The position numbers were made by a program, and so were the translations under genes. A stretch of 64,000 nt of DNA from positions 124,001 through 188,000 of the forward strand of contig JBEWZL010000044.1 of the NCBI GenBank assembly GCA_045837725.1, given 5' to 3'. Source of the stretch: Vermamoeba vermiformis (Eukaryota). Within the stretch, counting starts at the first letter, position 1. The number at the start of each line of letters is the position of its first letter. Positions 1 to 51,848 of this stretch are shown here, piece after piece. The notes below the pieces were generated by a model. The model had not been told where the DNA came from and did no database searches. It saw only the letters and a program-made list of their open reading frames with translations.

Positions 1-2619
1 AGTAGCCCAGCAACGAGATCAACCACTTGCCTAATGTATTGTACGTTAGTACCACACGTGTCAATAGTTAGAGCGTTGCACAACTTACCAGGGTCGTAGT
101 GCATCCATCTCAAGCCATTTCTGTAGTCATAAGGGAACTCGTGATGGAAGTTGTGATAGCCTTCACCGAATGTGAACAACGAGACAATGTAGCTGTCACG
201 AGGAGTGCGTTGATCGCTGTACGTGAAATCGCCCCACCAGTGAGCCAAACTGTTGATGAAGAAAGTAGCGTGTTGAATGAAAACAGCCTTAGCAAAGCCA
301 CCAATGAAGAGACCGCCGAGCCAGTCACCCCAGCCGAGGCCAGCAATTAAAGTAGGCAAAACAATGCCCAATCCGAGAGCGAAGTAAGGGTAGTACTTGT
401 GTTGGAAGGCTATAAGTTACATCGTTAGAAAAAGTTTTGATATCTTGGGTAATGTAAGAAGCTAGGACTTACTCAAAATAGGATCGGCTAACAAGTCGCT
501 AATGTCGACCTCAGCTTCAGTGTAGTACTCAGGACCCCACGATTCACGCTTCCAAATCAACCAGCCCATGTGCGAGTACCAGAATCCACGCTTAGCGTTG
601 TACGGGTCCTTGTTTGTGTCGGTGTAACGGTGGTGAGCACGGTGATCGCGGCACCACGAGATAACGGAGCCTTCAAAAGTTGAGGCACCAGCCAACATCA
701 AGGGAATCTTGGCGATGCTCTTGACGTCGTAGGAACGATGAGACCACAAGCGGTGATAGCCCGAAGTAATACCAATGCCACCAATGTAGTACAAGATGAA
801 GCCGAGCAACAAAGTCTTGGCGTGAACTTCACACACGAAGAAACCGATGAAGGCCAAGAAGATAGAGCCGAACAACCAAGCAGTGACGAACCAATCAACC
901 TTCTCTGCGAGGGACTTGACACTAAGGCCAGTGTCGTCATTGGAGAAAATGAACTTGGTCAATGAAGTTTCTTGGAGTTGCTACGTTTGTGCGTTAGATC
1001 CGGCCATTAAAAAACTTGAATTGCGCAACTTACCTTATCAAACTTCTCTTGCAAGTGCTTGTATGCTTTCTTAATGTTGTAGTTGGGTACGGCGATGCTG
1101 TCGACAATCATGTAGTTGAAGTTGTCGGACAAGAGCTCGACCCACTTGGGAAACTTGACGGCAAAAGTGACGGAGATTTCGTTCTTGAGCTGTTCTTTGG
1201 TCTTTTGCACGGTCTCTTTGTACTCCTCGTAACGCTCAGAGGCCAACTTGAGCAAGGCAACGTGAGGTAACTGATGGGCCTTTTGGAACGAGCTGGCCCA
1301 GAAGTGATAGACCAACCACGGCATTAAGTAGTACTTGACGAGACTAAGTAATGTGTTAGTAATTGACATTATAAAATGAAGCTTAGAATCATCAAAAACC
1401 GGATCTTGATCTCCATCCGTAAGGAAAAAACTTACCCCCACCAGCCCAAGTTTAGAGCCATCAATGGGAAGAAGATGCAAACAAACGCGTAAATAAGGAT
1501 CATATTCACCATTGCTCGCTTCTCTAAGTTAATGTACGGAGTGACTTGCGCCTTGATCCATTGCCAAGGCGAAGCCACGAACCAGAAAGGAGACGATAAA
1601 AGTCCTATAAATATGCTTATTAGTAATGTACTCGACAAGTACTAAGTGAAGTACATACTTGAATTGTTATAATATTTCTGCCAGGATTGGAAAGGAGTCA
1701 TTAAAGGCAGCATGCACAACGTGCCAATAACGTCGTTTAAGCGCTTATTTTCAACAAAAGCGCCTTTACTGCACGCGTAAGAAACTGTGAGCAGCTATAT
1801 AATAAGGTTAGAGATTGCTAATTATTGTAATTAGATTGCGCATCCATTAATAGTCCGAATCCAAAAACTTTAAATTATTTGTAAGCCAGCAAATTCGAAT
1901 TTGCATTTGCATACGCTAAAATTGAGGTAATCGAAGATGCAATAATTCATCTGCGATTGATTTTCCGTTCATGAAAACAAGAAAAAACTTTGAAGATCCG
2001 GCCGAGTTTTGACGGAAAATAAATTATAAGATTATGATGCCCGAAAGTTTTTGGACAAAGGTACAAGCATAATTAAAGGCATGCAATGTGCATAAAAATT
2101 GTGAGTTGGATCAAGGCAAGCAAGGTATTTGTGTTTCGCGCACAAACTTGCTTTTAACTTGAGCGAAATGGATATTTGTAATTAAACAAGAATCGATTAT
2201 GAAAATTTCAATAAGCTGGGAAATCTGAAAGTTCTGATTCGGATTACGATCTGAAAGTCATTGTACTTTACACTTACTCCTGTAATAGCTGTGCCCAAGA
2301 ACATCCATCCAATAGGTAGTAAGTACCAAGGAGTGTAGGCCAGAATGACTACGCCGAGGGTTACAAACGTGATCGTCTTGACGAGCGAGAAGATGGCCTT
2401 CTTTGTGCTCGTTTGAAACACCTAAAAATGATCATAATAAGAATCGGAGCAATAGAGATCGAGGTTGAAAAGGTCATGATTAACAAAGCGAGCCTAAGTA
2501 GGCACTAGTTTGGATTTAGTTGTACAACTACAGCTCCGATGCCAAGTTGATTGCGCGATACGTACCTCTTTCGGCAATAGATCTGCCAGCTCGTTCATAG
2601 ATGTCGGGAACGAGTTCAT
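1..2619 (-). CDS. Fatty acid desaturase fusion: N-terminal degenerate delta-12/omega-6-like domain plus intact delta-9 acyl-CoA desaturase (spliced; 3' end runs off the window)
   Basis: C-terminal half has HRLWSH, HRAHH and GEGYHNFHH boxes. N-terminal half resembles DesA-type desaturases (PWYLLPIGWMFLGTAITG, LMPWLVYHFW, FPKWVELL). Joined in frame by intron 981-1033; ATG at 2619. Confidence 0.9.
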
Positions 2620-3216
2620 GTTTGGTGTCTGGATCGACTAAAAATTGAATTATGAATAGAGCTCAGAAAAATTTACTTTTATACTTTCTGGCACGCGGCA
2701 ATTATCAATATTAACTTATTTAGTGAACATAACAAGAAATTCATGAAAAGTAGGACAAAGAAGCGGTGGCCGCTTTCCCAATCTGACAAGGATCTGAGTC
2801 AGATCCTAGTCATGGTCAATGAGGATTCATTGATGATAATGTCATGCTAAAATAGAGTACTTGCCTTCCTTGTGTTTCTTGTGCCTGCGCGTGTACGAAA
2901 TACGGTCAATTTTTTTCTTCTTACGCCTTTCAATTTTTTGTGACCGCTTAATTATCCTCAACGAATGAACCGTTTAACACTACTATTAGTGACATATCGA
3001 GAAATTATCAGGAGTTACCGCAAAGGCGAGTTTCCTGAAGGTCTGAAAGCCCGTGCCCGCGATAACTTTTACTACGATTGGGAATATGCAGGAGACCAAC
3101 CGTATGGCATATATTAGTCTTGATTTTGTTATTGCGGGTGGAATGTTGGTCACGGGCCCGACCAATGTCACACACAGTGATCTCACAACGTGTATTTCGT
3201 CAATTTCACAATTACG

Positions 3217-4266
3217 ATGAACACAATGGATGAGATTGAGGTACGAACGCATATTAAATTTAATAATATTTTCTAATTGTTATGCAGGTAGTTACATACC
3301 ATACTGGCGCAGATTTTTTGGCGGGATGTGGTCCTTTTTTGATGGAAAAAGAGATAGCCAATAATTACCAGCTAGGCGTTGCCCCACGATTAAAAGAAAA
3401 TAATATTTTATTCTCAGTTAACCGAAAAAATACCAAGAAAGGTGGAGCATACTTTTAAACTTTTCGATCTGGGTTAGTTTGTCTTACTAACACGTTTTAC
3501 AGTATTATTAACTGGCCTATCCGAAACTACCGTCGGCAGCTTATCGCTTGTTACCTATGAGACCGACGAAAAGTTGTTAGAATTTCTCACTGCGCACGTT
3601 ATCTCCTTTTTACAAAGTTGTTCGCTGACCCCGAAGTTGATCGGTGTTACAGCTCCTGCATCACTCGTTCATCCAATCAGAGACTTCCTCAATACCCACT
3701 TCGACGCCGGCTTTAACTTCCGCACTAATCTACGCTGCTACGTATGCACCGCTGTGTTAAAAAGCGCTCTAGAGTCAGCGGATCGCACGCCAGGTTCGAT
3801 GGTCGTTGCAAACGAATCTCATTTAGAACAAACAGTTAATATGATGCGAGAGTTTGAAGAGCAAGTGCACAGACCATCTGAACGATTATCAGGTAAATAG
3901 AGAACAACAATACAAAGAAATTTTGTTTGACGGATGTACCCAGATGAGCGAACCCGAGAGCGTCTTCAAAAGTTTATGAACGTGCAACGCGTTTGGATAT
4001 GGATAGACGAAGGCAAGGTCACTTCCATAGTAATAAGCACGCGTGATACAGAGTCAGCACAAGGCATCAACAGTGTCTACACTCCAGTATCTTGCAGACG
4101 TAAAGGATACGCAACTGCCCTCGTATCGAAAGTAGCGCAATTTATGATCGAGAAGAACAACAAAAAGGTGTTCTTATACGCAGACTTGGACTATCCTGCC
4201 AGCAACAAAGTCTACACAAATGTTGGATTTGTTCCCGTTGATGATCCTGTTACTTGGGCAAAGTAA
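3217..4266 (+). CDS. GNAT-family acetyltransferase (spliced)
   Basis: C-terminal VYTPVSCRRKGYATALV...FLYADLDYPASNKVYTNVGF acetyl-CoA-binding motifs; exons linked by GT-AG introns. Confidence 0.85.
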
Positions 4267-4766
4267 AAATCCATACTAAATATGAAGACCTTGCAATCGC
4301 GAGATTTATTTGCATTGTGGCCCGTAAGTAGCTTCGTTGCGGTTTGATTAAAATTTAAATCATGTCATCTTATTCATCGTTGATTTTGGATTGGTCATTA
4401 GCATTATCGGTCTTTTTTGGTGGTTGGTAGGGTTGGAAACCTTTTTTTCCGCTCGTCCTGGCTGCCATCCGTTTCAAAACTGCTACCGAAAAAATCAGAC
4501 TAATTAATTAATGTAAGCAATACAATTTAATATATAAATACTGTATTGCATTAAATGTCTTCTCATAAGAATGTAGAATAAGAATGTCTTACCTTTGGGC
4601 GGTTGGTATAACAGGTCCTTCGGATTATTTTTAGTGGGGTTGTTATTGTCGCTCATTTGGTATGACTTTCAATTAAACCCAATAATGCGCAACAGAATCT
4701 AAATAGTATTTTTGGCAGCAAAGCTCGTGAATCACGTTTCTTGTTTGTCTTCTTTGAACCGAACAG

Positions 4767-25581: not shown

Positions 25582-25652
25582 CGGGCCTTAGTTCAGTGGT
25601 AGAACGGAGGGCTGTAGCCCCTTAGACGTCGGTTCAATTACGGCAGGCCTGA
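25582..25652 (+). tRNA. tRNA-Tyr(GTA), intronless, with T-stem mismatch (possibly pseudo-tRNA)
   Basis: Cloverleaf: CGGGCCT/AGGCCTG acceptor, GTTC/GAAC D-stem, GAGGG/CCCTT anticodon stem with loop CTGTAGC, GGTTCAA T-loop; C1-G72/A73 Tyr identity; downstream oligo-T. Confidence 0.85.
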
Positions 25653-30755: not shown

Positions 30756-32292
30756 TTATCCAAGAAGTGTCATTATAGCGAGAGTACAGAACATTACAAA
30801 CAAAGGGACAACGGTACCGGTGCCATGGGATACAACCGATGCATGAGGCTGTGCTACAGGTACTGACACAGTGCTCGGCGACGCAGATCTGTCACACAAT
30901 TTGGTCGCGGTGCACGAGACGTCCTTGGCACCATCGCGAGTGAATCGGAGAGCAAGTTCTATTCCAGCTTCTGTCGCTTTAATGCCATCAAGGTGCACTT
31001 CAACAGCACCACAGTCTGACAGTGTATTGATGGTGTAATAGTCCGTAATAGTGATGTTAGTGTCACAAAAAGAGGGTGACACTTGATCGTGACACGTGAC
31101 ATTTGTTGGCTCAATGAAGCACCCCTCGGCTCTGTACAAATAGCAACTAAGTTCCGATAATGTGCATTGATAAGCCAGAACAGTATTGTCGACTGGAGCA
31201 ATGGCAAATCCAAAACTACTGACTTCCGAACTTGCAGATTCGGCGGATCGAATTCTTCTTGTGTAGATCCAGCTTCCCGATTCATCTCTGTCGTACCAGT
31301 ACAATGAACCTGTTTGATTGTCATTAATAAGATCGACTGGAGCTGCCAGGACGAATGCACTATTGGACATCATCTCTGCTGCCAACGGAAAATAGCCCTG
31401 CGAATTCATCTGCAATTCTGTCGTGTAAAGTGTTTGAGTTAGAGTCCATTGTCCATTGGTATTATTTTTGGTATAAATTCTGGCTGCTTCGATTCTAAGC
31501 GACGTCGATAGCACGCTAGAAACGATTATGGTGTCAAATCCGTTGTATAAAACGTGTCTTATGGCACTGTCGAGGATAGGTTCCGTTGGAATATTAGTCA
31601 CTAGTGACCAAGATCTGTTGGCGTGTCGTTCGTAAACAAACGTTGAGTTGGTAGTGAATCCGGTAAAGTAATTTGGTCCAACTTTCATTAGAATAGGTCT
31701 GAAATCGACTATATTGGCTGGTACTAAAGTGGTATATTGCTGAGGAACCTCTTCTTGAATTAACGTCCAATTCTGGCCGTCAAACTCGTACGTTCGGATT
31801 GCATCTGGCCACAAAGCAACAAAAGTGTCGTCAGGAAATATCCAGCCAGTTGTATTTGGGAAATAAAAAGAGTAAGCTTTGGTAATAAGCCGTGACGCGC
31901 TGAGTTGGAAGAGATCAACGTATGGGTTGGCCACAACTGCGATCCAATTACCATTTGTCGATAAATTAGGGATTTGCTTCTTAGAATCAGTCACCAAAGC
32001 GGTCGTCTGTCTTGAATCTACTACATTATAGTTATTATCGGGGCCTCTTTTGTACACGAGTGCTAAGCTGTTTGAAAAATTGAAGGCGATTGCAATATCT
32101 TCGTAAGCGACTGCTCGAATGATTAAGAAGTTTCCTGAATTAATTGCTGAATCATTTGTTACTTTATAAGCTGGAATTTGCTGTTATCAGAGCGCTCGTT
32201 AATTATTTTGAAAAAGATCAGACACATCTTGTAATTACCTGGACTGCCTGAACGACAACGCAAAGGGCGAAAATAATAAATAATTTTAACAT
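30756..32292 (-). CDS. Secreted/GPI-anchored beta-propeller (FG-GAP-like) surface protein, copy 1
   Basis: Signal peptide MLKLFIIFALCVVVQA; W..TQ/FG.A repeats; Cys-rich NVTCHDQ domain; Ser/Pro linker and hydrophobic tail. Confidence 0.75.
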
Positions 32293-32449: not shown

Positions 32450-33992
32450 TTATAATACTGCTATTAGCATTGTAAGAAAGAGAATCATAAGTGCTGACTG
32501 CAAGATCTGACTTCCGGATGTGTTATCTTTTGGTGGTGATTGCGGAGCCGAGACTGCCATGGGAGCAATAGGAGCTGCATTATCGCAAAGTGCGTTCACT
32601 GTGCACGTGACATCAGTTGAGCCAGAACGAGTGAATGTCAAGTCTAAGTAATAGCCTTGTGCATCGGATCTGATGACGTTATTGGCCTGAACTGACACTT
32701 CTCCGCACTTGGCAGGTGTGTTGATAGTATACAAGCTGTTAATATCGACGTCGAAGGATGAGCACGATGACAAGCGTTGATCATGACACGTGACATTTGT
32801 CGCCTCTTCGTAACACAACTCCGCGGTGTGGATGAAGCACGGAAACGAGTCTATGCCAGGAAGACATTCGACAGAGATTAAGCCGTTGTTGATTAGCGCC
32901 ACGGCCTGTCCAAAGCGTCCATCGTTGACAGCTGAAGTAACGCGTCTGGTGACATTCCAAGTGCCTGTCTCATCACGGTGCAGCCACCAAACTGAACCAC
33001 TGGTGTGGCCTTTAATAATATCTGGTACATAGCCATCGTTTGGTGCTGTGACGATGTAGTTGTCGCTGTCAACTTGAACAATTTCATCGCCAAAGTATCC
33101 GTAGCCAGTGATGCCTATTGACGCAGCTGCAATGCGCTGTGTTCGTTCCCAGCCAACTGCTCCACGTGTGTAAATAGCAACGTATCCACGAGGCTGTGAA
33201 ACACTGTCTTCAAAACTGGATATGATCAACGTATTGTTGCCGTCCCATAATAAATGCGTAAGTGGACTTTGAACATCTGCGTCAAATACAATAGGGGCAT
33301 CAAATACGGACCACGACTTGTCTTCGTTACGGTAAAAGATCTGTCCGCCAGTTGAGTACTGAATGCTGATGTAATTGAGATGTTTACGCAGGAAGAGAGT
33401 ATTACCACCTGCATTCGACTTTATCAATGTGTAGTTGTCGGGAATATCCTTGCGAGCTAACGACCAGTCGGTGCCGTTGAACTCGTAAGTGCAGATTGCG
33501 TCTTGAGTAAAAGCAACATAAGAACCGTCCTCGAATATCCAGCCACCAAATGGATTAGTGAAGTATAATGTAAATGTCTTATTAATAAATGTGGCATCGT
33601 CGTTGAGTTCGAAGATTTCGTGAGCCAAATCTGCTGCGCGAGCTGCCCATCTGCCGTTTGTTGAAACAATGATGCTCGTAGTGGACATTGTTGAATGCGG
33701 CCGCGAATCTACTCTATGATAGAACCCTGAGGCACCGCGTTTAAGCGACACGATTTCGTCTGTTGTCGAATCTAGCATTATGGCCAGATCGTCATGTGCT
33801 TCCAATGGGAAAGGAAGGGTTCTTGCGCTACCATACAAATAATAAGATTGCACAAAATCGGAAGAGCGCATTGCAGGAATATTCTACGATTTTTGAAATT
33901 AGTTACAAAATTTAGTTTGCGCTTGAACATACCGATAATGCGTCTGTAACGACGAAACAACACAAACAAAAAGTTATCAATTGCTTCAACAT
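32450..33992 (-). CDS. Secreted/GPI-anchored beta-propeller (FG-GAP-like) surface protein, copy 2
   Basis: Signal peptide MLKQLITFCLCCFVVTDA; GYFGDEI and GRFGQAVA repeats; shares STNG.W, YEF.G..W and NVTCHDQ...YTINT with copy 1; hydrophobic tail. Confidence 0.75.
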
Positions 33993-41284: not shown

Positions 41285-44200
41285 TTATGGCTCCTTTTCA
41301 TCGTTATTCTCAGCTTCATCACTTTCATATTCAAATAACGCTGGAGCAGGCTCGTTGTTGTTATTCAGATTTGTAGCTGGCAATCTATTGTAATCAAAGG
41401 TGTTCTGCTCATTGGTATTGTTATTGACATTATCATTATTGCCGTTATTATCAAACACTATGGCTGGCTTTTCTTTAAATTCTAACGCCGCTTTGTCTTC
41501 TTGATCCACATCCGTGTTCGTATTGTTATTACTATTATTGTTATTATTATTCTGTTGTTGATGCTCTAGCCAGTATTGGTAGTGTATTTCTTCGAAGCTT
41601 AGGTTACGATACTTCTCGTGGATTGTGATGCTTTGGATCGTGTGGATCTGAAAGAATTCGTAATTAGTCTATTGCACAGCTGGTATATAATGTATACGAC
41701 ATGACATCATTAGTTTAATACTATTATGTGTATTAATGAAACAGCTAATGAGAGTTCTTACCGAGTACTGTGACAATTCTTTGTGCGCGTGCTGCGAGGG
41801 AACTGAAAAACGGTAACAGTTAGTTATTAACGGTATTAATAGTAGTAATATATTACTATAGTCTATATACTTACTATTCACCCTGTTCTCAAAGTCAAAC
41901 AGCTGCACTTCTCCCTCAACGGTTCCACAAGCGATCATAAACGCGTTAAAATCAATACAGCACGAGTTCGCTAGACACAAGAGCGTTAGTAAATGCTATA
42001 TTTTCATGAACAGACGGTTCAGTGAACGAGAGAATCGTACCTATTTTGTGCTGCACTTGATACATGTAAAAGAAGTTCCAACTCCACAACGAGAACGAGC
42101 GACGAACGGAATCCAAACTAGGAAAAAAGTTAATATCATTCATGTTAATGAACATAATGCTAATAGATCATCTCATCGAACCTATTTAATATACTTAAAG
42201 TGAAAGGTTTGTGGAAAGAAAAAATTTAAAGATCCGGATGTGGTGAAAAGCACGAGTGAATTCGCTTGTCATGTTGAGCGATCGACTATTAAGTATCAAT
42301 TATATATATTAGGTGTCACTTACGTTACTATTCTGCTCTCGGCAAGTTTCATGTCTTGCGTGAAGTGTCGCTTAATCTTGATCAATTCACCACCCTTCGC
42401 TGTCCACAAACACACAATGTCGTTCAAAGGATAGCACGCGATAACGATATCGTCATCGAACTACATAAATAACGAGATTAGAACAAGAAATATAAAGAAT
42501 AAAATGCCTTCTGGGTAGATTTAGGATCAGTCCGAAGCGAGATTCGGGATTCGTTCTTGAAGTTTGCAAGATCTGAATAGGATAATATATTATATAGGAG
42601 CTACTTACTTGAACTTTTCCAATTTCAAAGTTCAACAGCTCCACTTTGGGATACAACGAACTCAGAGTTTTGTAGGTTTGGACCACGAAGCCATCGGTGA
42701 TTGAATACATGCTAAATAGGAAGGAAATAAATAAGAACAAATAATAAAGCATATGTTATAATATCTTAGTATTACCATAGTTGGTGCGCGTTAGCTATGA
42801 TAAGTCGATCTCCACGAAGTTGAATGGATCTTACTCCAGACGGGTCACAACCTTCGTGCGGATTAAATTCTTGCGGAACTTTAACGTTCGTGAACGATGG
42901 CCCGGAGTTTGCTCCGTAATTCTGCGCCATATTGATGAACTTCTTGAACTTGCGTTTAGCGGCACTAGGACTGCTTTCTTCTTCTTTAGCTTGATACACG
43001 ATCAAGCTAAGAGCCTTTATATATAATTAGAATACATAATATTAGCCAAATAAGCCATAAAGTCTTTACCTGAGCTGACGGATGCACGATCGATCTGATC
43101 AACTCGCCAGTAGAAAGGTTGTAGATGCGCCTAATAATGACAATGCGTTAAGCAATGTATTAGGGCATATATTTCTATATTTACGTACACTACGGAGGAC
43201 TTGCACGTCGCGGTGACCATCACGTTTTGCCGCTTTGAGATCTCGATCTGATTGCATACCTCTTCAATATAGACTCGTCTTTGGAACTCTAATTTCGTCT
43301 TTGTGACTAAAAAGACGTCGCAGCTGCAAGAAACAACGAATTAAATTAAATTCAATTTCGAAGAAAATATATCTGACGAAGGATTTGAACTTGACTTACT
43401 AAGGAGCATCGGCCAGTGTAACAGCAAGAATATTGTCGTCGAAATGAAAGGTCTCGTAAGCATCGGCAAAATGTGCTTCTGGTTCCTGCTTAAAAATTCC
43501 TTGACCAGATCCGTTTGTGTTGGCTTCGGATTCATTTTCTTCATTTTCTTCGTCTTCATTATTGTTGTATAATATATCATCCAGTTCATCCTCTTCTTCT
43601 AACAGCGCTAATGAAGGCGAGCGAACATTTCGTTGTTTCTTCGGCGACGCTGATCTTTTTGTAGGCGTACTTTCCAAATTAGGAAAAGCTGATTCATTCG
43701 TATTATCGTTCTCTTCCTTATTATTATTCGTTTTAATGCGTTTAATAGGACTTTCAAAATCGTCTACGCTTTCATTCAAGCCTCTTTTTCTCTTCAAATT
43801 TTTGCTTTTGAACAACGGGCTTCGTAATGAGGGTTCTCCTACGTTGTCCAAACTCATATTCAAGACATTATTGAATTCTTCCGTAGACTTTTCTTCAGTT
43901 CGCTCCACTTTTGTCTCGTTTTGAGTACCAAATCCAAAATTTTGTTCGATCAGATCTGGATCAACTTCTCCTTGATCTCCCAACCCGTTATTATTGCTAA
44001 TAATATTCATAGTATTATCGTTCGTCTCTTCTGCATATTCAGGCGGCTCTTCGTAATCTTCAGCAACTTCATTAAAATTTAATTTTCGTTGCACTGGACT
44101 GCCCAAATTAGTATTATTATTATTTTGGCTACTAGGCTGACTGCCGCTAAAATTAGCGTTCGATTCTTGCGTGCTAACCGCTTCAAAATTATTCATAATA

Positions 44201-45125
44201 GCGCCATCGTTATTCTGCTTTGTAATTCCATCGTCGCTACTCGCCAAATTTTCTTCTATTTTTGGCATTGGAATTCTTTTCTCGTTCCATAAAAAGTCAC
44301 CTGTCTTGCTGTCGCACACAAATAACGAACTCATGCTGATAAACACGACCTTGTGCGAGTCAAATTGAACTTTTGTGACTTTTTGTGGGTACAATGCGTT
44401 TGGATTTTGCCTCACCCTATTGACACGCGATTAGTACTTCATGAAAAATAAAAAAATTCGCAAATTTAGCCCCCATAATAGTCAACAGTAACCCGAGTAA
44501 ATTTAGATCTAAAATTTGGACGGGTGATCTGACCGAAAAGAATTAAAATCAATTCTTACAAAGGAGAAAATCCACTAATAGGAGGTCTAATATGCATCAC
44601 ATTCGCAACACCTTCTTCCCACAATCGTTCAATGGTACGGCGCCGAAAATAGGCTTTGCGATAAGAAGATTCTTCCACGCGAAGATGTTCTGAGATCTAT
44701 AATCAAAATTGCATTGTTAATATTTAAATTAATACTATTAGCTTCGTAGCATAATTATATTGATTCAAACGAGCTTGCCTTAAAGCGCTTCTTGCATCTA
44801 TTTTTCCAATACTGCTTATCGTTGGCTGTATCGCGCCATTCTCGTGAAACCTGTTATTTATAATATTATTAATTTTTTAAAGCTATAATACACCAGGGAG
44901 AATTAATAATTCTGTCAAAATCGGATTTCAAGCAATAAAATGAAATTCTGATAGAAATAAACTGTACGAACCTGATTGACTATAAAATGGTCTTCTGGAG
45001 CCAAGAAGGACAGAATCTAAATTAAATAAATTAATACAGCAGATGCGATAGGAGATGTGATTTTCAAAAATTAAAATGCGGCTTACATGAAAAGCCAATT
45101 CCAAAGGAAGAACGTCTCCGAACAT
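41285..45125 (-). CDS. F-box / WD40-like protein with long acidic, Asn-rich low-complexity insert (spliced)
   Basis: MFGDVLPLELAFH F-box start; W..Y...RF; ACGTVEGEVQLFDF; basic NLS-like LKRKR. Confidence 0.7.
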
Positions 45126-49917: not shown

Positions 49918-51582
49918 TTATTTGCGCAGACAAATGCTGCGAATATCATCTTCAAGCCATAATAATTGCAATCGTTTCCTAGCATCTGGATCTCTTCCGA
50001 GTTTCGATCTGTCACTTGCGATCTGGACCAACTTTTTCAGGTGCCTATCGTCGTTCACGAATTGAAAAAAGGCACCTGGATTATGAAACGCACTTTTCCA
50101 TATTAGGACTAATATCTCGTTTGGAATTGTTGCAAAGATTCCTCGATCTGCTGGCAAGTAAATAGTTCTGAGAATGTTCAAGCAATTGATTACTTGTTTG
50201 AATGCTCTTATTAATATCATTCTAGGTGTGAGTATATCAAAGCGTTCATCGTCGTGCTGGTGAAAGAAATTCGTAGCAAATCGAACTTCTACGAACGGAT
50301 TCGCTCTTGTTGGGCGAGCAATACGGGGCCAATAAGCAACCGATTTTTTTAGTTTGATAAGCTGAACTGATGTATTATTCTCTAATGTATTAATGAACGA
50401 GTCTGTAGGGTTATATCTGCATCTGCTACAGAAAACTAGGGTTTGGATCGGAGATGCCGAGTGCACCAAGTTTGATAGATCCAATTCTGAGACACTTCCT
50501 TGGTTTCCTCTAGCAGCAAATATCAATTTTCGAAGCGATCTATAAGAAAAATAACATCAGTAAGAATTTTGTTAAGATACATCCGGAACTTACTTCATCG
50601 AAAGTATCGATTTTTGTAGTTCTTCATCCACCATAATTTGCTTGACAGGTACTTCTAGTGCTGTTATAGCCGTACTATCACATATTGCTTTGATTAACGG
50701 ACACATTGATACTCCATGTGATAAGCCGGGCAAACTTAATTGTTGTAACGCCGGATGTGCCATTAGCGTCATCGCCAATAACTTTGTTTCGTCTGTTGAT
50801 AAGTTAAATTCCTCTCTGTTATCAAATAAATAGAATTTTTTCAGGTTTTTGTTGCCTTTGATCGCTTCACTAATAGATCCGACGCTTTTAGGCGCCTCAA
50901 CGGAATCTAACTTGATCGACTTTAAAGAACCCATTGTAGCCAAACCAAGCAATATATCGTCTGAATTTAAATTTCTGCCGCTTAGATCTATTGAAGTGAT
51001 TGTATGATTTGCTGCAAGAATTTCTGAAATTACGGATTCGTTCTCAATCCCCGACAATTTCAATCGCTGAATAGTCTTATTTTTCTTTATGCCAGCCAGC
51101 CATTTTATTGACTGTTCCATAGTTTTGATTTGCGCGTGTTCATCGGTTGTCAGATTCAGATCCGTAATCGTTGTGTTTTTTTTCAGGAATTTGCTGAACA
51201 TCGATTTGGCCGTCGTGGATGATATATATACGTCGGTTGTAAATGAATTAATTTTGCATTTGTTGGACCGTAGCATTTTGAAAAAAGATTTTGTTCTGTC
51301 GTTACACTCCATTACATCCGGGGCACTAAGCTCTAAAGAATAATATCTGTCATGATTTTCTATTGCTTGTAATATTGCAAGTATTTTCGGCGAGGTAACC
51401 AACTGATCAATCACCGAAAATTTGATCCTAAATCCGTCTTTCGGTATTTCGTTTTCTTGCAACCATTCTATTAATAAATCTAAAGACTCATTGCCAGCAG
51501 TAATTGTAATCGTTGGTTCGTATTTCCATGACGGTGGAATCTGTTTGTGCTTCTTCAAGAAATCATCCCAGCCCTGTTTCAT
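49918..51582 (-). CDS. LRR protein paralog 3 (more divergent; start approximate)
   Basis: Shares MAHP.LQ.L.LPG, DEELQKSILSMK, the intron donor context and IFATIPNEIL with paralogs 1 and 2. Confidence 0.75.
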
Positions 51583-51848
51583 CCATTTTAATAAATATTC
51601 ACGTATTTGTAAAATATTATTTTGTTAACTTCCTTATTTTAACAAAAAATAACTGATCGGGAATTGATTTGGGCTCTACAACGGATTTGTTCTTAGCCTA
51701 TTTACCTCTCCTGTTCCGCTCATTTTACATTATTACAAGCTCAAAATATGGTGTTGTGCATTTCGTGTGGTGCGGAAAAAATAACGAACAACAAACAAAA
51801 GATTTTGGTGCTGGCCGGTTGAAATTAATTCGTTTATCAAGTTTATTT

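Follow-up and report, generated by a model that had tools for sequence, protein, structure and literature searches.

The window, a 64,000-nucleotide stretch of the Vermamoeba vermiformis contig JBEWZL010000044.1 (positions 124,001–188,000), carries at its left edge a minus-strand gene that starts at the codon at position 2619 and extends past the window edge at base 1, with its C-terminus beyond the window. The gene consists of eight exons and seven GT..AG introns, and its product begins with a desaturase-like N-terminal domain (residues 1–271) that is followed by a delta-9 desaturase domain from residue 272 onward. All features described below lie on the minus strand. Exon 1 (2566–2619) contains the start codon and 18 codons for the cytosolic N-terminus of the first domain, and its beginning shows homology to the N-terminal end of the related protein P0002. 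Exon 2 (2278–2421) encodes the first two transmembrane (TM) helices of the FAD6-like domain (helices 28–51 and 54–79 in the model of the P0002 homologue), and the joint between exons 1 and 2 (2419/2564, cut +2) is found in contigs of the runs X1, X2, and X15 and in 11 X21 reads. Exon 3 (1659–1794) holds what is left of the first two His boxes, YACSK at box 1 and KYYNNS at box 2. Exon 4 (1436–1604; joints 1603/1658 and 1343/1436) covers the region of the third TM helix. The dead domain closes with …EKFDK in exon 5 (1034–1343), which also encodes the conserved motif PWLVYHFW and the remnant of His box 3 (NYMIVD).

Intron 5 (981–1033; 53 nt, phase 0, GTAAGT…CTAAC…AG) links the dead domain to the delta-9 domain, of which exon 6 (473–980) encodes the N-terminal half with the His boxes HRLWSH and DHRAHH, and exon 7 (89–409) the C-terminal half with the His box YHNFHH. 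Intron 7 (88–31) precedes the partial exon 8 (1–30), and the corresponding joint (29/88, cut +1) is present in X1, X2, and X15 contigs. An earlier note, made from the sequence alone, had quoted six motifs from the N-terminal half (YACSK, KYYNNS, NYMIVD, LMPWLVYHFW, FPKWVELL, and VPNYNIK), all of which occur in the spliced translation of the minus strand, a strand that the note does not name. The same note had placed an intron at 981–1033 with a CTAAC branch point, joining EKFDK to QLQETSLTKF in phase 0; each of these details is found in the sequence, and the splicing itself is seen in contigs and RNA reads. Upstream of the start codon, a possible 5′-UTR intron of the GC..AG type (2638–2854) is weakly indicated by one X15 contig, which has a loose end of 15 letters past 2639. 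This loose end fits the window at 2857–2870 only with one extra T (a one-base indel), and an indel-free search of the window with the loose ends of X1 and X15 contigs yielded no exact or near match.

Both halves of the gene are carried by one transcript. X1, X2, and X15 are public runs that provide spliced contigs without an RNA record; X21 is the only recorded RNA and consists of raw RNA-seq reads from a related strain, used with a 90% likeness cut-off. All seven introns are skipped exactly in the spliced contigs of X1, X2, and X15, and X21 raw reads skip five of these introns as well. The joint between the two domains (980/1034; CT..AC on the plus strand) is spanned by one contig in X1, one in X2, and two in X15, as well as by 63 raw X21 reads (37 + 26, with 45 start places). 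One contig of 1606 nt runs from exon 7 across this joint into 277 nt of exon 5. P0001, a 97%-identical transcript-derived protein of 594 aa on a contig of 1877 nt, reads without a break from exon 3 to a cytochrome b5 domain. A single minus-strand mRNA encodes this multi-domain membrane protein, and the joint 980/1034 bears out the earlier proposal of an in-frame splice between the N-terminal half and an intact delta-9 domain. X21 depth per direction is about 15–32 over the N-domain exons versus about 45–107 over the delta-9 exons; the lower N-domain depth may reflect the 90% likeness cut-off, 3′ bias, or a shorter isoform that starts inside exon 5, and a delta-9-only isoform may exist besides the fused transcript. 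Exon 6 cannot start translation on its own before box 1, because it contains no Met before the first His box.

The N-terminal domain is a homologue of FAD6/DesA-type desaturases. Searched against PDB sequences, a profile of the domain has a sole match, 8xks_K (FAD6a/FADL; E = 8.2e-11), and a search of a protein library gives 471 matches at E ≤ 1e-3, some of them stand-alone proteins in which every box is present. In tblastn, residues 12–281 align along their whole length, at about 30% identity, with DesA-like ORFs that lie uninterrupted on long metagenome contigs. Exon 3 scores 16.5 bits (E = 0.0075) against PF00487 in an exon-by-exon scan, under the gathering cut-off of 29.7, and residues 1–281 of P0002 have no PF00487 match at E ≤ 10. 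These homologies, together with the fold match below, agree with the DesA/FAD6-type assignment that had previously been made by eye. The loss of all three N-domain His boxes, also proposed before, is evident in the alignment, in which the domain keeps 0 of 8 box histidines and active relatives keep 8 of 8. As none of the eight di-iron histidines is retained, the N-domain cannot be a di-iron desaturase.

The domain models as a desaturase fold with four TM helices and a cytosolic cap. The model in question is an AF2 prediction for the N-domain of the P0002 homologue (58% identical) rather than for the window's own spliced product; it has a pLDDT of 78.1 and a pTM of 0.77, and the four long helices are modelled best. 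Foldseek with this model identifies 8xks_K (E = 3.4e-08, TM 0.71), with E ≤ 0.001 in 2 of the 500 counted matches; beyond the two motor-complex chains, the matches are GPCR noise with E > 0.4. VIA likewise matches the model to 8xks_K with Z 22.8 over 257 residues, followed by AlkB (8sbb; Z 9.0) and, weakly, by SCD1 (4ymk; Z only 5.7); the remaining rows mostly match a single helix.

The second domain has three intact His boxes (HRLWSH, DHRAHH, and YHNFHH), and PF00487 is matched by exon 7 (34.9 bits), exon 6 (26.7 bits), and P0001 (67.2 bits), in keeping with the earlier description of an OLE1-like delta-9 domain. Both P0001 and P0002 bear the source label 'stearoyl-CoA desaturase (delta-9 desaturase)', and this label and the box spelling are an indication of delta-9 regiospecificity on 16:0/18:0-CoA. 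The C-terminus of P0001 is a cytochrome b5 domain (PF00173, 55.1 bits), from which we infer the remainder of the window gene, including a domain of this type. Among the 31 proteins scanned, 16 of the 17 fused to a delta-9 domain (the truncated P0027 being counted as fused) have a C-terminal PF00173 domain, the exception being P0065. The HPGG motif lies in this C-terminal domain in P0001 and in most full-length relatives.

The fused architecture recurs in 24 of the 150 listed cluster representatives, which come from a range of little-studied microbial eukaryotes, always with the N-domain first, and the suspicion that similar fusions exist elsewhere was thus well placed. N-domains of the fused relatives retain 0, 1, 2, 6, or 8 of the eight histidines. 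The N-domain is also found ahead of b5-front-end desaturases (P0010, P0144), a FAE1-type ketoacyl-CoA synthase (KCS; P0056), and a SAT-type acyltransferase (P0034); in P0034, P0041, and P0056, only its first part precedes the other enzyme. The fusion most likely started when an omega-6/delta-12-type desaturase was joined to a delta-9 desaturase, with the b5 donor shared, and the front domain would then have lost iron binding in this lineage. A single origin of all fused N-domains including P0065, a group named after the tree had been seen, was rejected (AU p 0.02), so the stages of box decay do not form a single clean lineage. The fused group without P0065 forms one side of a branch with a support of only 59.

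Sequence variation and conservation both bear on whether the dead domain has been maintained. Among the 40 of 169 variant rows listed, the N-domain has 10 synonymous and 2 non-synonymous variants, and the delta-9 domain 26 and 2, respectively. The identities of the N-domain and the delta-9 domain are 98 and 95% to P0001, 58 and 66% to P0002, and 42 and 51% to P0003. In addition, non-TM motifs near the lost boxes (PFESW, PWLVYHFW, and P.WVE.LS.N.NY) vary little or not at all among distant relatives. Judged from the listed variant counts and the identities between relatives, the dead domain is under purifying selection, as the earlier view of a retained domain had implied.

FAD6a/FADL (PDB 8xks chain K; 8xqw chain M) is the closest solved protein to the N-domain in both sequence and structure. 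The available part of the report on the Chlamydomonas Orf2971(Ycf2)–FtsHi chloroplast import motor describes FAD6a as a structural subunit that has no iron density and has fatty-acid-like density in its pocket (10.1101/2024.09.02.610899). As far as this part of the report goes, FAD6a shares with the N-domain the FAD6-like fold and degenerate His boxes, but is a stand-alone plastid inner-envelope protein of 682 aa inside a protein-import machine, and its boxes are partly lost, whereas all eight His are lost in the domain in the window. Identity between the two is about 22–23%, and the domain in the window, unlike FAD6a, is covalently fused to a delta-9 desaturase and, in relatives, also to b5. 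Fungal OLE1/SdeA resembles the C-terminal two thirds of the fused protein, with the PF00487 boxes and, in P0001 and most full-length relatives, b5. OLE1/SdeA has no second desaturase-fold domain, whereas the fused protein opens with about 270 additional residues that belong to another desaturase subfamily. SdeA is reported to work as a self-associated complex with b5 in cis.

The box-flanking motifs are shared with stand-alone forms of plastid FAD6 and cyanobacterial DesA omega-6 (delta-12) acyl-lipid desaturases. Stand-alone matches with eight His include P0012, P0017, P0021, P0022, and P0029, which we take to be FAD6/DesA from their motifs, atlas cluster labels, and general knowledge. These forms are active enzymes of 340–470 aa, whereas the domain in the window has 0 of 8 His and scores below the Pfam threshold. 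On sequence grounds, FAD6/DesA is the family of origin of the N-domain.

The gene might be taken for two separate genes, or the fusion for an artefact of assembly or annotation, given that no one contig covers the whole CDS and that two X1 contigs share only 28 nt (1283–1310). This reading is already contradicted, and we give it almost no credence: the junction intron is spliced in the four contigs from three runs and in the 63 raw RNA reads, the delta-9 exon offers no start codon ahead of its first His box, P0001, P0002, and P0003, which stem from other sources, are each fused without a break, and L002 and L014 contain uninterrupted fused ORFs. That the N-domain is still an enzyme, with other ligands or another chemistry, is very improbable. 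The His of YHFW, invariant in 9 of 9 dead-clade rows (alignment A2), could be cited in its favour; most active relatives have this His too. Against such an activity stands the absence of all eight box His, which are reportedly, in work by Shanklin from 1994, all essential in this superfamily. Moreover, the replacements at box positions vary among relatives (Y/K/N/S/R/M/D and others), and there is therefore no conserved alternative metal site.

We consider it fairly probable that the front domain, of omega-6 type and having lost iron binding, has been retained to act, without catalysis of its own, as a partner of the delta-9 domain to which it is fused. By analogy with the iron-free, fatty-acid-holding FAD6a of the Chlamydomonas import motor, its role is probably that of a non-catalytic acyl-binding partner or scaffold. 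It would be a built-in 'pseudo-subunit' that supplies four TM helices and probably an iron-free acyl-binding pocket, and it would help the catalytic delta-9 domain by stabilising, positioning, or feeding it. A mere membrane anchor, or a topogenic leftover needed for delta-9 insertion with neither ligand nor regulatory role, is an unlikely alternative in view of the conservation, which reaches beyond the helices to PFESW, PWLVYHFW, and P.WVE.LS.N.NY, and of an overall N-domain identity about 0.65–0.9 of that of the catalytic domain, above the usual need of an anchor; it would nevertheless explain the partial domains before other enzymes in P0034, P0041, and P0056, and no part of the predicted structure is modelled better than the four long helices. 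Less likely still is a lipid or fluidity sensor that tunes delta-9 activity or turnover, the role favoured in the earlier note. Delta-9 desaturases are classic targets of unsaturation feedback, and a sensor would match the keeping of a desaturase pocket without iron, for which the fatty acid in iron-free FAD6a, in the portion of that work available, could serve as a precedent. The dead domain is, however, also fused to KCS, SAT acyltransferase, and front-end desaturases, which suggests a role broader than delta-9 feedback. Beyond the partnership with the delta-9 domain that we prefer, a wider proposal is rather unlikely: the domain may be a portable non-catalytic lipid-handling module, repeatedly fused by microbial eukaryotes before acyl-modifying enzymes and holding or presenting an acyl substrate in the membrane, and the relatives that keep 6 of 8 and 8 of 8 His would record stages of an enzyme that once had both delta-12 and delta-9 activity.

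Among soluble kinases and proteases, domains that are pseudoenzymes are familiar; to our knowledge, they have hardly been described for integral-membrane di-iron enzymes. Structure and sequence searches returned only FAD6a, in the algal protein-import motor, as a solved membrane pseudo-desaturase. A search of the literature, with most subscription journals outside its coverage, found no description of a desaturase–desaturase fusion or of a 'pseudo-desaturase' domain. In the gene in the window, a dead desaturase domain precedes, on the same chain, a working desaturase from another subfamily; the dead domain is expressed and, by the sequence comparisons above, under selection. The two dozen distant clusters with varied box loss form a natural series on what becomes of the desaturase fold after desaturation stops, and could be used to address its possible roles as a subunit mimic, an acyl holder, or a regulator. 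Relatives in which both domains are intact would be candidate single-chain 18:0-to-18:2 enzymes and of interest for lipid engineering.

The gene lies on the minus strand, starts at 2619 and consists of eight exons (2619–2566, 2421–2278, 1794–1659, 1604–1436, 1343–1034, 980–473, 409–89 and 30–1), as obtained by spliced translation of the reverse complement of 1–2700 with exons joined by coordinate. The seven introns, which in gene order measure 144, 483, 54, 92, 53, 63 and 58 nt, have GTA(A/C/T)GT at the 5′ end and AG at the 3′ end (7/7), and six of the seven have a CTAAC or CTAAT box close to the 3′ end. The open product has 557 residues within the window and is cut at base 1, where the gene runs past the window edge. 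All peptide strings quoted in the earlier note are found in this translation, and the phase-0 intron 981–1033 creates the junction EKFDK/QLQETSLTKF as claimed there. On the minus strand, 2638–2854 may be a GC..AG intron within the 5′ UTR; one contig from the public run X15 continues from 2639 into letters fitting 2857–2870 with a one-base indel, and an X1 contig instead diverges at 2625, with 255+ letters that lack a match in the window. The divergent neighbour gene on the plus strand (about 2950–4270) has in its last ORF piece a GNAT acetyltransferase domain (3931–4266; PF00583, E 7.4e-09).

Both halves of the protein are encoded on one mRNA. Four public runs were aligned to 1–2700, X21 being the only one recorded as RNA. 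Each of the seven introns is spliced out of contigs from X1, X2 and X15, with borders exactly as predicted (ends CT..AC on the plus strand), and raw RNA-seq reads of X21 contain five of the seven joints (980/1034, 63 reads; 409/473, 51; 1343/1436, 31; 2419/2564, 11; 1793/2278, 6, shifted by one base), with zero X21 reads at 1603/1658 and 29/88. The in-frame spliced fusion proposed in the earlier note is thereby borne out, by the exact contig joints and by the 63 reads at 980/1034. Likeness to the window is 90–95% in 1003 of 1124 X21 reads, and X21 therefore represents a related strain or species. Single contigs of 1606 nt (X1) and 1605 nt (X2) extend from exon 7 across the 980/1034 joint and include 277 nt of exon 5; exons 5 to 1 are covered by a second contig that overlaps the former by only 28 nt, so the whole CDS is not spanned by any single contig. 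The homologue P0001 (594 aa, 97% identical) is continuous from exon 3 to its end on a contig of 1877 nt, too short to accommodate introns, and P0001 is therefore probably transcript-derived. The delta-9 exon contains no Met upstream of the first His box, which likewise favours one transcript. In X21, depth is two to three times lower on the N-domain exons than it is on those of the delta-9 domain; reads here lie near the 90% cut-off, and a shorter isoform with a start inside exon 5 may exist.

At 1261–1350 (exon 5, near PWLVYHFW), contig depth rises to 390 (X1) and 1798 (X2) versus about 46–56 alongside, and loose ends at 1312/1280 continue into different sequence whose translation (...KYYFIPLA...) matches dead domains of the P0004/P0005/P0006 type. 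These samples thus appear to contain a second, highly expressed dead-domain relative.

The delta-9 half matches PF00487 in exon 6 (26.7 bits) and exon 7 (34.9 bits), has the intact boxes ascribed to it beforehand (HRLWSH, DHRAHH and YHNFHH), and ends in P0001 with a cytochrome b5 domain (55.1 bits); together, these features identify the back part, at the level of sequence, as a predicted OLE1-type delta-9 desaturase.

Pfam does not recognise residues 1–271 taken alone, nor residues 1–281 of the homologue P0002; exon 3 scores 16.5 bits, under the cut-off. A profile built from three N-domains (A1) has a single significant match among 177,635 PDB sequences, FAD6a/FADL (8xks_K, E 8.2e-11), a FAD6-like component of the Orf2971–FtsHi motor of Chlamydomonas. 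In a library of 1.84 billion proteins, the profile has 471 matches at E<=1e-3, of which 135 reach <=1e-10 and 26 reach <=1e-30. On long metagenome contigs, the best non-fused matches are unbroken reading frames of ~290 codons (29–34% identity over residues 12–281), which are read as putative bacterial DesA-type genes. The P0002 N-domain was modelled with AF2 (9-row alignment, pLDDT 78.1, pTM 0.77), and the model gave two Foldseek matches at E<=0.001 among 500 counted (8xks_K, E 3.4e-08; 8xqw_M, E 3.6e-07). In an all-against-representatives fold search, 8xks_K had Z 22.8 (257 residues, 3.6 Å), AlkB Z 9.0 and SCD1 Z 5.7, with Z>=8 in 2 of 48,161 chains; a language-model atlas places the N-domain among FA_desaturase/DUF3474 clusters (scores 0.90–0.91). 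Profile, fold searches and atlas thus agree with the DesA/FAD6-type assignment of the earlier note, and the modelled N-domain appears to share the desaturase fold of FAD6a, its closest solved relative.

Box positions were scored against an active member in an alignment of 48 N-domains (42 filling >=72% of the profile and six added by hand); the N-domain of the window retains 0/8 box His, so all three boxes are lost, as first noticed by eye. Residues flanking the boxes are conserved in distant relatives (PFESW, G.WGL.KYY.IPWLVYHFW.S, P.WVE.LS.N.NY). Among the 40 variant rows listed (129 further rows lie outside the count), the N-domain has 12 variants, 10 synonymous and 2 non-synonymous, and the delta-9 domain has 26 synonymous and 2 non-synonymous. 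The dead domain is under purifying selection, and its supposed retention is upheld by the 10 versus 2 variants and by the flanking residues. Identities of the N-domain and delta-9 domain are 98/95% in P0001, 58/66% in P0002 and 42/51% in P0003, and about 30–43% and 35–55% in remoter fused relatives; judged from these sequences, the dead domain appears to evolve only slightly faster than the catalytic one.

Similar fusions occur elsewhere, as had been guessed: 24 of 150 representatives listed (50% identity clusters) have the N-domain followed by the delta-9 domain, in constant order, as do P0001–P0003, P0154 and P0155, and the fusion is likewise encoded, without a break in the ORF, at the metagenome loci L002 and L014. 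In 20 fused rows (ten other fused sequences, with incomplete N-domains, were omitted), box His number 0/8 in 12, 1/8 in three, 2/8 in one, 6/8 in three (P0027, P0031 and P0038; box 3, x-I/V-P-H-Y) and 8/8 in one (P0065, in which the delta-9 boxes are also present). Strict patterns detect all three delta-9 boxes in 16 of 30 fused sequences; a looser pattern applied to nine of the other 14 detects both HxxHH boxes in eight and one in P0053, the remainder (P0014, P0027, P0043, P0073, P0129) being short or truncated.

In a quick ML tree of 42 N-domains, the fully dead fused forms constitute one group of 15 (SH-aLRT 83), with the N-domain of the window sister to P0002 (97). With the exception of P0065, every fused or degenerate row falls to the same side of one branch (weakly supported, 59), so most forms are compatible with a single ancient fusion and later loss of the boxes in steps. 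A single group including P0065, named post hoc from the tree, was rejected (p-AU 0.02), and P0065 seems to stem from an independent event or from a complication by fission or fusion. This 639-aa fusion has all His boxes in its FAD6-like and delta-9-like halves, clusters with stand-alone active forms rather than other fusions, and is a candidate single-chain two-step desaturase.

A Pfam scan of long matches (31 proteins) found the dead N-domain before b5 plus a front-end-type desaturase (P0010, P0144), a SAT acyltransferase domain (P0034), a FAE1-type ketoacyl-CoA synthase (P0056) and DUF6962 (P0041); these may be genuine fusions or artefacts of merging gene models. An alpha/beta-hydrolase tail on two active forms (P0104, P0117) provides leads to candidate fusions.

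The N-domain is a desaturase fold without iron ligands in a recurrent architecture. Desaturase homo- and heterodimers were reportedly described by Lou and Shanklin in 2014, and a fused dead subunit could substitute for a desaturase partner. The dead domain would serve the delta-9 domain as a membrane partner without catalytic activity, because OLE1-type complexes and desaturase dimers are reported and, by analogy, because FAD6a, the only solved relative, is described as iron-free and structural. The FAD6a preprint describes no iron density, a structural subunit role and, within the pocket, a fatty-acid-like density overlapping the SCD1 stearoyl-CoA site (10.1101/2024.09.02.610899), and another report states that OLE1-type enzymes act as complexes formed by self-association, with their b5 in cis (10.64898/2026.10.23.760519). 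Recurrence before several acyl-modifying enzymes points to a general role in acyl handling or positioning, and the dead domain may be a scaffold, acyl holder or sensor. Known precedents comprise desaturase–cytochrome b5 fusions and a single FAD6-like structural subunit that lacks iron. Full-text literature searches, in a collection without most subscription journals, found no tandem pairing of desaturase folds in which the front one is dead; retrieved relatives are labelled at most with the automatic 'stearoyl-CoA desaturase', and an earlier annotation or paper on the tandem fusion may exist.

Elsewhere in the window, eight ORFs of 220–477 aa within 23785–51624 (for example, 30756–32183, 32450–33883, 43399–44430 and 50590–51624) lack a Pfam match at E<=0.001. 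ARAGORN reports a tRNA with a CTA anticodon, labelled tRNA-Pyl, at 42981–43064 on the minus strand, and the sole tRNA reported by Rfam at the gathering threshold is tRNA-Tyr (25582–25652); the former call is a false positive or else a tRNA resembling an amber suppressor.
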